Below, one piece after another: positions 60,177 through 64,000 of a stretch of 64,000 bases of DNA. Below the pieces are notes generated by a model, which made no database searches, was not told the origin of the DNA, and saw only the letters and a list, made by a program, of their open reading frames with translations. Source of the DNA: Escherichia phage vB_Eco_BGP; sequence record OZ035849; one strand, written 5' to 3'. Numbering within the stretch: position 1 is the stretch's first letter; each line of letters opens with the position of its first letter. Made by a program: the position numbers and the translations under genes.

Positions 60177-60509
60177 ATGAAAACGATTAATCTGAACGCT
60201 ACAGTTAAAACTAAATGCTTCAATGGTAAATATGATGAAACTATGTGGTTCTTAATGGCAGTTGAAGGTGATATCATTGAAGTAGAAACAACAGAAGGTA
60301 TGGGAACAGATTTCACCTTTACAATTCAAGTTCATAATTTCTTTACTGGTTGGATTTATGAATTGAATACAGTAATCGTTGGAAAAATTGAACAAAATGA
60401 ATTAGGTGAATGGTATTATGTTACAGCTCGCCAACGTGCCGAACGCTTAATTGAGAAGATGAAAAAAGTTGGTAAACTTGACATGCAGCATTGGAAAGTA
60501 GTAAAATAA
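60177..60509 (+). CDS. hypothetical protein (110 aa)
   Basis: SD AAGGAG; ORF. Confidence 0.5.
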   Translation: MKTINLNATVKTKCFNGKYDETMWFLMAVEGDIIEVETTEGMGTDFTFTIQVHNFFTGWIYELNTVIVGKIEQNELGEWYYVTARQRAERLIEKMKKVGKLDMQHWKVVK

Positions 60510-61269: not shown

Positions 61270-61466
61270 TGAAATTCTTTTTAGGTCAAACTGTTGAATT
61301 AAAGGGAGTTGGTATACCTGGATTAATTTCTAAGGTTCTACCTCCATTTAAATGGAGTGGTATTCAAATAAAAGAGGCTTATATTGTTTCCTGGGTAGAT
61401 GGAAATGAAGACCTTCGTATGGGTGATGAATTATCTCCTATCTACGGATTAAAGGAATTAGTATGA
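61269..61466 (+). CDS. hypothetical protein (65 aa)
   Basis: ORF. Confidence 0.45.
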   Translation: MKFFLGQTVELKGVGIPGLISKVLPPFKWSGIQIKEAYIVSWVDGNEDLRMGDELSPIYGLKELV

Positions 61467-61669
61467 ATATAATTAATAAGATTTTTGGAATTCAGTACAT
61501 TAAGGTCACATATAAAGTAACAGATAAAAATCCATATACTGATGAACGTGAAGAACCACGAGTTGAGTCTATTATATTAGAAAAGGACCCTAACTGGCCA
61601 GTTGAATTTCGTCTTCCTTGCTATGGTCATTGGGCTGATGTTGAAATTATAAGCATTGAAAATGTCTGA
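61463..61669 (+). CDS. hypothetical protein (68 aa)
   Basis: ORF. Confidence 0.45.
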   Translation: MNIINKIFGIQYIKVTYKVTDKNPYTDEREEPRVESIILEKDPNWPVEFRLPCYGHWADVEIISIENV

Positions 61670-62120
61670 GTTAGAGATTAGAAGCAATTTTAGGTGGCCA
61701 TCATGTGCATTAAGTAATTTCGCCCAATGGCCTTTCGTTATGGATGGTATTCAATTTGGAGGTCTTGAAGGATTCCTCCAAGGATGCAAGGTGAAAAACG
61801 TTGAACAACAACGTCGTATATTTGGGTTATCCGGGCTTGCCGCTCAACAAGCTGGAAGGTCTTATGCTAGAGCTCAGGACCGTGGGACCCTCTTCTGGCT
61901 TGGAGTTCCATTTTCAAGATACTCCCCGGCGTGGAAAGAATTATACACAAATGCATATTTTGAAGCAGCGATCCAAAACAAGGGCTTTCGTGATGCATTA
62001 CAAGCCTCGAAAGGAAAAGTTTTGAAGCACAGCATGGCTAGTGGTCTAACAAAAGATGATACAATACTAACCGAAGCTGAATTTATTGATGTGTTAAACC
62101 TATTAAGAGACTCTCTATGA
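61656..62120 (+). CDS. NADAR-family (YbiA-like) protein
   Basis: LSNFAQWPFVMDGIQFGGLEGFLQGCK aligns with the E. coli YbiA core FSNFAAWPIKVDGKTWPTSEHYFQAQK as I recall it. Confidence 0.55.
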   Translation: MKMSELEIRSNFRWPSCALSNFAQWPFVMDGIQFGGLEGFLQGCKVKNVEQQRRIFGLSGLAAQQAGRSYARAQDRGTLFWLGVPFSRYSPAWKELYTNAYFEAAIQNKGFRDALQASKGKVLKHSMASGLTKDDTILTEAEFIDVLNLLRDSL

Positions 62121-62956
62121 AGCCTACTATTTTAACTGATATTGATGGAGTGTGTTTAAGCTGGCAATCAGGCCTTCCTTATTTTGCTCAGAAATATAAT
62201 CTTCCGTTGGAACATATTTTAAAAATGATCCAAGATGAAAAATTTATTTCTCCTGGTAAACTTTTTAATTGTGATGAAGAACTTGGTGTCAAGTTAATTG
62301 AAAAATACAATCGTTCAGATTTTATTCGTTACTTGTCTCCATATAAAGATGCTCTGTGTGTAATTAACAAATTAAAAGAAGATTATAATTTTGTAGCTGT
62401 TACAGCGCTGGGTGATTCTATTGACGCTCTGCTGAATCGTCAATTTAATTTGAATGCTCTTTTTCCTGGTGCCTTCTCAGAAGTACTGATGTGTGGTCAT
62501 GATTCTTCAAAAGAAGAGTTGTTCAAAAAGGCAAAAGAGAAATATAACGTAATTTGTTATATTGACGATCTCGCTCACCACTGCGATCACGCGAGTGAAA
62601 TATTAAGTGTTCCTGTTTATTGGATGGCTCGAGGGGAACGTGACAGTATTCCAAAAACTGCTCAGCGAGTTTATACATGGAACGATGTAGAGAATAAGCT
62701 TTTTTCACCAAAGGAAAATAAAGAAAGTTTTGATAGTGAAAAAGCTATAAAAGATGTAATTGAAAAGATGATTAAAAACGATTCTTTTCGTTGGAACACT
62801 ACCTGGAGAACTCCTGGATTTAATCCTTATAATCATCTATATCATCCATATCAGACACATCCGTTTCAGACATGGAACTATATTAAACCCGGCGGTATAG
62901 AGTATTTGTATAATAGACCTACTTGTGGTGATAATATTTTCCAAGGAGCATTCTAA
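62117..62956 (+). CDS. HAD-superfamily phosphatase-like protein (279 aa)
   Basis: N-terminal motif ILTDIDGV (DxDG, HAD motif I). Confidence 0.55.
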   Translation: MKPTILTDIDGVCLSWQSGLPYFAQKYNLPLEHILKMIQDEKFISPGKLFNCDEELGVKLIEKYNRSDFIRYLSPYKDALCVINKLKEDYNFVAVTALGDSIDALLNRQFNLNALFPGAFSEVLMCGHDSSKEELFKKAKEKYNVICYIDDLAHHCDHASEILSVPVYWMARGERDSIPKTAQRVYTWNDVENKLFSPKENKESFDSEKAIKDVIEKMIKNDSFRWNTTWRTPGFNPYNHLYHPYQTHPFQTWNYIKPGGIEYLYNRPTCGDNIFQGAF

Positions 62957-63225
62957 TGTTTGTTGTTCACACTATTTATGAAAATGAAGGTAATACTACA
63001 CGTGATTACGGTCACGTAAATCAATTTTTTAGATGCAATCCAGAATTCCGAGCTCAAAAAGACGAACGAATTTTTAAAAAATGTGTAGAGCAAGGTTTCA
63101 TTTATATCAAGCACTGGATGCAAGGAAATAAAGTTAGAACTACATATCATAGGTCTTTAACTGAGCTTAATGATGAATTGATTTATAATAGAGCTGTAAA
63201 TCAAACTCTGAAGGATGAACAATGA
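62956..63225 (+). CDS. hypothetical protein (89 aa)
   Basis: ORF; stop overlaps gene 30 ATG. Confidence 0.45.
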   Translation: MFVVHTIYENEGNTTRDYGHVNQFFRCNPEFRAQKDERIFKKCVEQGFIYIKHWMQGNKVRTTYHRSLTELNDELIYNRAVNQTLKDEQ

Positions 63226-64000
63226 TTCTTAAAATTCTGAACGAAATAGCATCTATTGGTTCAACTAAGCAGAAGCAAGCAATTCTTGAAAAGAATAAAG
63301 ATAATGAATTGCTTAAACGAGTATATCGTCTGACTTATTCTCGTGGGTTGCAGTATTATATCAAGAAATGGCCTAAACCTGGTATTGCTACCCAGAGTTT
63401 TGGAATGTTGACTCTTACCGATATGCTTGACTTCATTGAATTCACATTAGCTACTCGGAAATTGACTGGAAATGCAGCAATTGAGGAATTAACTGGATAT
63501 ATCACCGATGGTAAAAAAGATGATGTTGAAGTTTTGCGTCGAGTGATGATGCGAGACCTTGAATGTGGTGCTTCAGTATCTATTGCAAACAAAGTTTGGC
63601 CAGGTTTAATTCCTGAACAACCTCAAATGCTGGCAAGTTCTTATGATGAAAAAGGCATTAATAAGAATATCAAATTTCCAGCCTTTGCCCAGTTAAAAGC
63701 TGATGGGGCTCGGTGCTTTGCCGAAGTCAGAGGTGATGAATTAGATGATGTTCGTCTTTTATCACGAGCCGGTAATGAATATCTAGGATTAGATCTTCTT
63801 AAGGAAGAATTAATCAAAATGACCGCTGAAGCCCGCCAGATTCATCCAGAAGGCGTGTTAATTGATGGCGAATTGGTATACCATGAGCAAGTTAAAAAGG
63901 AGCCAGAAGGCCTAGATTTTCTTTTTGATGCTTATCCTGAAATTAGTAAAGCCAAAGAATTCGCCGAAGTAGCTGAATCACGTACTACTTCTAATGGAAT
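63222..64000 (+). CDS. 30: ATP-dependent DNA ligase gp30 (5' partial, runs off the window)
   Basis: MILKILNEIASIGSTKQKQAILEKN...; adenylation lysine context KADGAR; matches T4 DNA ligase N-terminus. Confidence 0.9.
   Translation, partial: MILKILNEIASIGSTKQKQAILEKNKDNELLKRVYRLTYSRGLQYYIKKWPKPGIATQSFGMLTLTDMLDFIEFTLATRKLTGNAAIEELTGYITDGKKDDVEVLRRVMMRDLECGASVSIANKVWPGLIPEQPQMLASSYDEKGINKNIKFPAFAQLKADGARCFAEVRGDELDDVRLLSRAGNEYLGLDLLKEELIKMTAEARQIHPEGVLIDGELVYHEQVKKEPEGLDFLFDAYPEISKAKEFAEVAESRTTSNG

Follow-up and report, generated by a model that had tools for sequence, protein, structure and literature searches.

The gene at positions 61656–62120 (+ strand) of the DNA analysed here, a 64,000-nucleotide stretch from Escherichia phage vB_Eco_BGP (record OZ035849; hereafter the window), is assigned as the ortholog of T4 gene 30.3 (adfN). 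Its product very probably acts as in T4: a DNA ADP-ribosylglycohydrolase that resembles DarG1 but is an orphan, it would repair phage DNA that has been ADP-ribosylated on guanine. The DarTG1 resistance of T-even phages was traced to gene 30.3, which was renamed adfN, for anti-DarT factor NADAR (Johannesman et al., Nat Commun 2025, PMC11825919). The original prediction, made from the letters of the window, had proposed a NADAR-family protein that reverses DarT-type guanine ADP-ribosylation as an anti-defence function, and this is the published role of T4 gp30.3/AdfN, to which the protein encoded here is identical at 151 of 152 residues. Because the function of the T4 protein has been published, neither the observation nor its interpretation is new; the function is already in the literature for T4, and the experiments suggested by that prediction have already been done with T4.

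The adfN gene and its genomic setting

The 3 kb around adfN share 99.7% identity with Escherichia phage EC128 and 95–99% with several hundred Tequatrovirus records. On the basis of this similarity (up to 99.7% identity to known phages), the window is classified as part of a Tequatrovirus (T4-like myovirus) genome. The gene order on its + strand (cd, 31.2, 31.1, 31, rIII, 30.9 to 30.1, gene 30) is that of T4 as read on the complementary strand. One + strand ORF spans 61656–62120, where 61656 (TTG) is the first possible start. The start according to the T4 annotation is the ATG at 61662, two codons after this TTG, and the published numbering of E36 and K43 is recovered solely from the ATG start, which gives this coding sequence:

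61662–62120, + strand: adfN (T4 gene 30.3), 459 nt, 152 amino acids plus stop; predicted NADAR-fold guanine-ADP-ribose DNA glycohydrolase.

The encoded protein is identical to T4 gp30.3 at 151 of 152 amino acids (99.3%) over its full length. Eight nucleotide differences separate the gene from T4 30.3; seven are synonymous and the remaining one changes Ile125 to Met, the majority residue at column 125 of the gp30.3 family, where T4 carries Ile. The gene is as long as that of T4 and is free of frameshifts, and identical AdfN proteins were found in other phages by tblastn. Since the protein matches the Pfam family PF08010 (Phage_30_3) at E 2e-70 (235 bits; cut-off 36) and has relatives in 1510 phage records (tblastn), the single ORF at 61656–62120 is not a chance feature, and the gene call of the original prediction is real. 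The PF08010 match above the cut-off, the 99.3% amino-acid identity and the gene order from 30.7 to the ligase gene, which is as in T4, together indicate orthology. In addition, adfN is an orphan in its setting: the neighbouring genes 30.4, 30.5, 30.2 (HAD) and 30.1 (DUF3045) gave no Pfam match to DarT or to ART families.

Other reading frames are present within adfN. Two ORFs of 43 and 53 amino acids lie on the opposite strand and have no supporting evidence. The T4 annotation also contains an internal, out-of-frame gene, 30.3', which corresponds to 61798–62025 (+) of the window and lies inside adfN in another frame; here its ATG start has become ACG. The 30.3' frame carries 5 amino-acid changes in 76 relative to T4, against 1 in 152 in the adfN frame, and of 13 related loci 12 keep it open, with a varying start codon (M, T or I). 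This variation argues against a conserved protein, without settling the matter.

Membership of the NADAR superfamily

Direct searches gave little indication of the wider family. The adfN protein had no match to the Pfam NADAR family PF08719 in hmmscan even at E ≤ 1, and its PHROG match, PHROG 652, is labelled as being of unknown function. A single-sequence phmmer search of the PDB returned nothing relevant, and a 9-sequence profile ranked YbiA first in the PDB at a non-significant E of 0.058. Because these PDB searches were weak, a 46-sequence profile, a profile–profile comparison and a fold search were needed. An exhaustive HMM search yielded 1454 representative clusters at E ≤ 1e-3, from which the 46-sequence gp30.3 profile was drawn; this profile matches YbiA at E 7e-4, and PF08719 is also matched by 7 of 46 and 12 of 75 members of the gp30.3 family. 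When the 46 gp30.3-family members were compared with 19 YbiA-family proteins by hhalign, the two profiles aligned over 146 columns with 97.8% probability and E 7e-13. An AF2 model of the protein (pLDDT 83) retrieved as its top three Foldseek matches YbiA (2b3w; E 2e-4, TM 0.63), a Geobacter NADAR (8bat) and a Phytophthora NADAR with ADPr (8bau). These profile and fold tests indicate that the adfN protein is a member of the NADAR superfamily (YbiA fold), in the AdfN/Phage_30_3 clade, so that the NADAR assignment of the original prediction is upheld. Its further statement that the core motif matches E. coli YbiA closely is right in that the motif match is real and the relationship holds at the level of profiles and fold, but it is overstated at the level of sequence, since BLASTP against E. 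coli K-12 YbiA aligned residues 17–70 only, with 19 of 57 positions identical (33%; pairwise E 8e-6).

The PF08010 family at large includes many longer proteins. About half of the best 147 of the 1454 family clusters (E ≤ 1e-3) exceed 200 amino acids, and recurrent extra domains are ASCH, BspA-type LRR and GDSL lipase; some members carry tandem NADAR stretches. Some of these fusions may be gene-calling artefacts.

Catalytic residues and the C-terminal helix

Three parts of the gene encode the elements on which activity would depend:

61767–61790, + strand: codons of the predicted catalytic residues Glu36 (61767–61769, GAA) and Lys43 (61788–61790, AAG), in the motif LEGFLQGCK.
62028–62036, + strand: codons of His123-Ser124-Met125 in the last beta-strand; Met125 is the sole difference from T4 (Ile).
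62073–62117, + strand: C-terminal helix, residues 138–152, intact; the model has a helix at 138–151.

The E-x-x-x-Q-x-x-K helix motif of the NADAR superfamily is found in the adfN protein with both the catalytic Glu and the catalytic Lys. Across the 46 family members E36 does not vary and K43 is kept in at least 90%, and hhalign aligns them with E47 and K54 of YbiA, respectively. The substitutions E36A and K43A lower the activity of T4 AdfN (PMC11825919). H123, which lies in strand 120–123 of the AF2 model, is likewise invariant in the 46 sequences; hhalign pairs it with YbiA H125, and K122 with YbiA E124. The catalytic position on the last strand is His in phage NADARs, Glu in YbiA and Asp in DarT-linked NADARs (PMC11125620); H123, as the residue marking the phage clade, is its probable counterpart here. 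The I125M substitution, two residues after His123, is conservative and restores the majority residue of the family. As for the C-terminal helix, in RB69 a frameshift at gene position 411 of 30.3 removes it, and the truncation lowers activity (PMC11825919).

Function of T4 AdfN and its probable transfer to this phage

The activity of the T4 protein has been described in vitro and during infection. T4 NADAR gp30.3 hydrolysed guanosine-ADPr and left thymidine-ADPr intact (Suskiewicz group, Toxins 2024, PMC11125620), and purified T4 AdfN strips ADP-ribose from DarT1-modified DNA and does not bind DarT1 (PMC11825919). Deletion of adfN from T4 or T2 abolished plaque formation on DarTG1 hosts, adfN had no effect on DarTG2, and ectopic adfN rescued RB69 (PMC11825919). 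T5 and Bas25 were rescued weakly by T4 AdfN, which is fully effective only in the course of a T-even infection. In a T4 transposon screen on DarTG1, insertions in 30.3 were depleted (log2FC -7.25, adjusted p 0), and the gene was non-essential on hosts without DarTG1 (bioRxiv 10.1101/2025.11.20.689424). In uninfected cells, T4 gp30.3 gave no protection from DarT1 and could not replace DarG1 (PMC11125620). Both experiments suggested for the window gene therefore have published counterparts: de-ADP-ribosylation in vitro was carried out with the T4 protein, which was active on guanine adducts (PMC11125620, PMC11825919), and deletion mutants of T4 and T2 were plated on DarTG hosts, where plaquing was lost on DarTG1 (PMC11825919). 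The cloning methods of one of these studies give the construct as 'E. coli T4 phage NADAR (gp30.3; residues 1-208)' (PMC11125620), compared with the 152 amino acids of T4 gp30.3; either the construct came from another phage or the range counts tags.

We infer that the T4 biochemistry and the DarTG1 phenotype transfer to the allele of the window, which differs by one residue. The tightly packed, early-type block from 30.7 to 30, with adfN inside it, would be expressed during infection, while the DarT1 toxin of the host would ADP-ribosylate guanines of the replicating phage DNA. The NADAR-fold enzyme of 152 amino acids would then bind the ADP-ribose on the modified DNA and cut the N-glycosidic bond that joins guanine N2 to the ribose, relying on Glu36 and Lys43 from the conserved helix motif together with His123, which is specific to the clade. 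Free ADP-ribose would be released and the guanine restored, so that replication could go on. AdfN would thus be an 'orphan antitoxin', DarG1-like and without a toxin, that acts on the guanine adducts of DarTG1 and spares the thymine adducts of DarTG2. Read in this way, adfN illustrates the capture by a phage of an 'orphan antitoxin' enzyme directed against DNA ADP-ribosylation by toxin–antitoxin defence. The assignment permits a confident adfN/anti-DarTG1 annotation for a gene labelled 'hypothetical protein' in most related records among the matches listed, and it predicts that the Escherichia phage of this window resists DarTG1 hosts.

The downstream genes 30.2, 30.1 and the DNA ligase gene

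Three genes follow adfN up to the end of the window:

62117–62956, + strand: gene 30.2, 279 amino acids; HAD-superfamily, 5'(3')-deoxyribonucleotidase-like, with a disordered C-terminal tail.
62956–63225, + strand: gene 30.1 (DUF3045), 89 amino acids; PF11243 at E 1e-64, 100% amino-acid identity to T4.
63222–64000, + strand: gene 30, ATP-dependent DNA ligase, 5' part; PF01068 at E 6e-14, the gene being cut by the window end.

The DNA ligase that the original prediction had placed near the NADAR gene is thus identified by its PF01068 match, and gene 30 starts 1.1 kb downstream of adfN at 63222. The same prediction had named a HAD-like phosphatase as the next gene, and this also agrees with the analysis of gp30.2 (62117–62956), although gp30.2 itself had no direct Pfam match. 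Among 26 homologous sequences, five residues (D8, D10, K132, D150 and D151) show no variation and T96 is kept in at least 90%, so that all four HAD motifs, I (DxD), II (S/T), III (K) and IV (DD), are present. The gp30.2 profile matches the mouse 5'(3')-deoxyribonucleotidase dNT-1 (2jao) at E 0.006. The structural model is confident for approximately residues 1–195 (pLDDT >90 for most of 1–190) and the tail is disordered; Foldseek aligned it with a probability of 1.0 to many HAD structures, and with TM 0.63–0.70 (target-normalised) to deoxyribonucleotidases, which were the most compact fits. These data support an NT5C-like protein with a Rossmannoid HAD fold that is predicted to be a phosphatase.

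The ATG of 30.2 overlaps the stop codon of adfN by 4 nt (ATGA), and 30.2 lies directly downstream of 30.3 in every one of the 14 close loci whose sequence continues beyond 30.3. Among distant loci it follows 30.3 within about 140 nt in three and, in one more, at a distance of about 1 kb; an adjacent 30.2 is absent at ten distant gp30.3 loci (L020, L022, L024–L031). Fusions of the two kinds of domain also occur. Three representative clusters (P0132, P0140 and P0249) join a gp30.3-type NADAR to an NT5C-type HAD domain, and the fusion loci are on bacterial-looking contigs (L034, 6001–6993; L035, 2534–3412; L036, 6001–6891), one of which, L034, also encodes an ADP-ribosylglycohydrolase, a second NADAR, RtcB, a PTP and an LMW phosphatase. 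The fusions mirror the adjacent 30.3–30.2 pair of T4. The gp30.2 profile gave no HMMER match to the fusion proteins; with hhalign it aligned through its N-terminal half to the C-terminus of P0132 with moderate support (64% probability, E 6e-5).

On account of the ATGA overlap, the conserved adjacency and the NADAR–NT5C fusions, gp30.2 was considered as a cofactor of AdfN. As an obligate, T-even-specific partner it is ruled out by the neutrality of 30.2 insertions on DarTG1 (log2FC -0.12; bioRxiv 10.1101/2025.11.20.689424) and by the ten distant loci that have no adjacent 30.2.

The upstream gene 30.4 and transcription of the block

Upstream of adfN, two features were recorded:

61463–61669, + strand: gene 30.4, 68 amino acids; ORF overlapping the adfN start by 8 nt.
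60478–60507, + strand: best sigma-70-like match, TTGACA-18-TAAAAT, 11 of 12 positions, upstream of 30.7; from a consensus scan only.

The 30.4 product is identical to that of T4 at 66 of 69 positions of the translation including the stop, and the gene is probably co-translated with adfN. It stands immediately upstream of adfN in 14 of 15 close loci and, among the loci examined, is kept there only in close T-even relatives (Tequatrovirus- and Mosigvirus-like), across which the C-terminus of gp30.4, YGHWADVEIIS, is conserved. Tequatrovirus- and Mosigvirus-like phages are the groups in which T4 AdfN works. Transposon insertions in 30.4 were moderately and significantly depleted on DarTG1 (log2FC -1.79, adjusted p 0.014), and those in 30.5 gave a value of -3.0 that was not significant (bioRxiv 10.1101/2025.11.20.689424). 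The simplest reading of the 30.4 depletion is a polar effect on adfN. That a co-transcribed neighbour, with gp30.4 as the better candidate, supplies the T-even factor needed for full AdfN function appears unlikely to us, and weaker still is the variant in which AdfN and the putative HAD phosphatase gp30.2 act jointly on another ADPr-derived substrate.

Neighbouring genes from 30.6 to gene 30 overlap at their start and stop codons, for instance by 8 nt between 30.4 and 30.3 and as ATGA between 30.3 and 30.2, which gives the block the look of a single translationally coupled unit. The match at 60478–60507 could be an early promoter of the tightly packed block from 30.7 to 30. Since the total number of sites in the promoter and terminator scan equals the shuffled expectation, the scan says little about transcription.

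Alternative explanations

A different main role for AdfN has some comparative support. Phage NADARs were predicted by comparative genomics to prefer low-molecular-weight ADPr derivatives, and co-expression with ARTs was noted in T4-like phages (PMC9503650). According to such a view, the enzyme would mainly process soluble ADP-ribose derivatives, such as by-products of signalling or RNA repair, or undo ADP-ribosylation by the phage enzymes Alt, ModA and ModB, and its activity on DNA would be secondary. The fusions of gp30.3-type domains to NT5C phosphatases, together with the one bacterial locus that combines an ARH, NADAR, RtcB and phosphatases, fit this proposal, as does the poor performance of T4 AdfN as a DarT1 antitoxin outside T-even infection. 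On the other hand, the DarTG1 knockout phenotype is complete and specific, the purified enzyme is active on ADP-ribosylated DNA, the gene is dispensable on hosts without DarTG1, and no soluble substrate has been reported; we therefore regard a mainly soluble substrate as quite improbable and repair of guanine-ADP-ribosylated DNA as the main role.

The fold match leads to another possibility: AdfN could be an N-glycosidase of the YbiA type that acts on riboflavin-pathway intermediates and serves metabolite damage control instead of anti-defence, given that YbiA, its best match in structure, carries an N-glycosidase annotation. However, hhalign places Lys122 at the position of YbiA Glu124 and the loop ENDxYWGDGG in a gap, and the identity to YbiA is confined to 33% over 57 residues. 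YbiA too hydrolyses guanosine-ADPr in vitro (PMC11125620), and the phage phenotype is accounted for by DarTG1, which leaves a YbiA-type role with hardly any probability. A similarly negligible chance is given to a decayed, non-functional allele as in RB69. Frameshifted, truncated or N-terminally short copies do occur in related phages, RB69 included, but here the frame is intact and of T4 length, the C-terminal helix is present and seven of the eight substitutions relative to T4 are synonymous; decay is already refuted by the intact frame and the C-terminal helix in the window sequence. A functional, DNA-repairing AdfN is the reading we retain as very probable.

Comparison with known NADARs and anti-DarT factors

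The nearest known protein is T4 AdfN, which shares 151 of 152 amino acids, the same E36, K43 and H123, a C-terminal helix of full length and the neighbour order 30.4, 30.3, 30.2, 30.1, ligase. It differs by Ile125 in place of the Met found here, and the phage of the window is another Tequatrovirus isolate. DarG1, the NADAR antitoxin associated with DarT1 (BC4488 family; Geobacter lovleyi 8bat, E. coli C7 NADAR), shows about 13% identity to AdfN in the structural alignment. In contrast to adfN, DarG1 is adjoined by darT, and its last-strand residue is Asp where AdfN has His; moreover, unlike DarG1, T4 AdfN fails to neutralise DarT1 when cells are uninfected. With no darT next to its gene and His in place of Asp, the adfN protein would work like DarG1 without being a DarG1-type antitoxin. 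E. coli YbiA (2b3w; PF08719), with 33% identity over 57 residues only, has a Glu124 position and a WGDGG loop that are missing from AdfN in the hhalign alignment, and AdfN is therefore not a YbiA-type enzyme. YbiA is encoded by a chromosomal gene next to dinG, described as part of a LexA-controlled operon, and gave no protection against DarT1 in vivo (PMC11125620).

Other phage-encoded factors also act against DarTG systems. [quoted passage not shown] AdfA (T4 gp61.2) and AdfM (T4 Tk.4) are further anti-DarT factors of T-even phages. AdfA is not a NADAR; it lacks both an enzymatic domain and known homologs, and binding to DarT1 appears to be the way in which it blocks the toxin. AdfM is a macrodomain protein, not a NADAR, and is directed against DarTG2. 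The adfA gene (61.2) is absent from the 64-kb window, which starts immediately before primase gene 61, and 61.2 would lie just outside it.

Other observations in the window

A search of the whole window (1–64000) against Rfam gave no family at gathering score. T4 has group I introns in td and nrdB in the homologous region, and therefore this phage may lack those introns. In addition, an ORF of 186 amino acids (1403–1963, + strand) separates primase gene 61 from dam and adjoins dam on its upstream side; the T4 gap there measures only some 300 nt. Its product has a faint similarity to the GATC-specific DpnII restriction endonuclease that stays below threshold (16.8 bits, where the cut-off is 23; E 0.0045). 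Of 503 related phage records, 145 contain the complete ORF, and it is named 'putative restriction endonuclease' in one.
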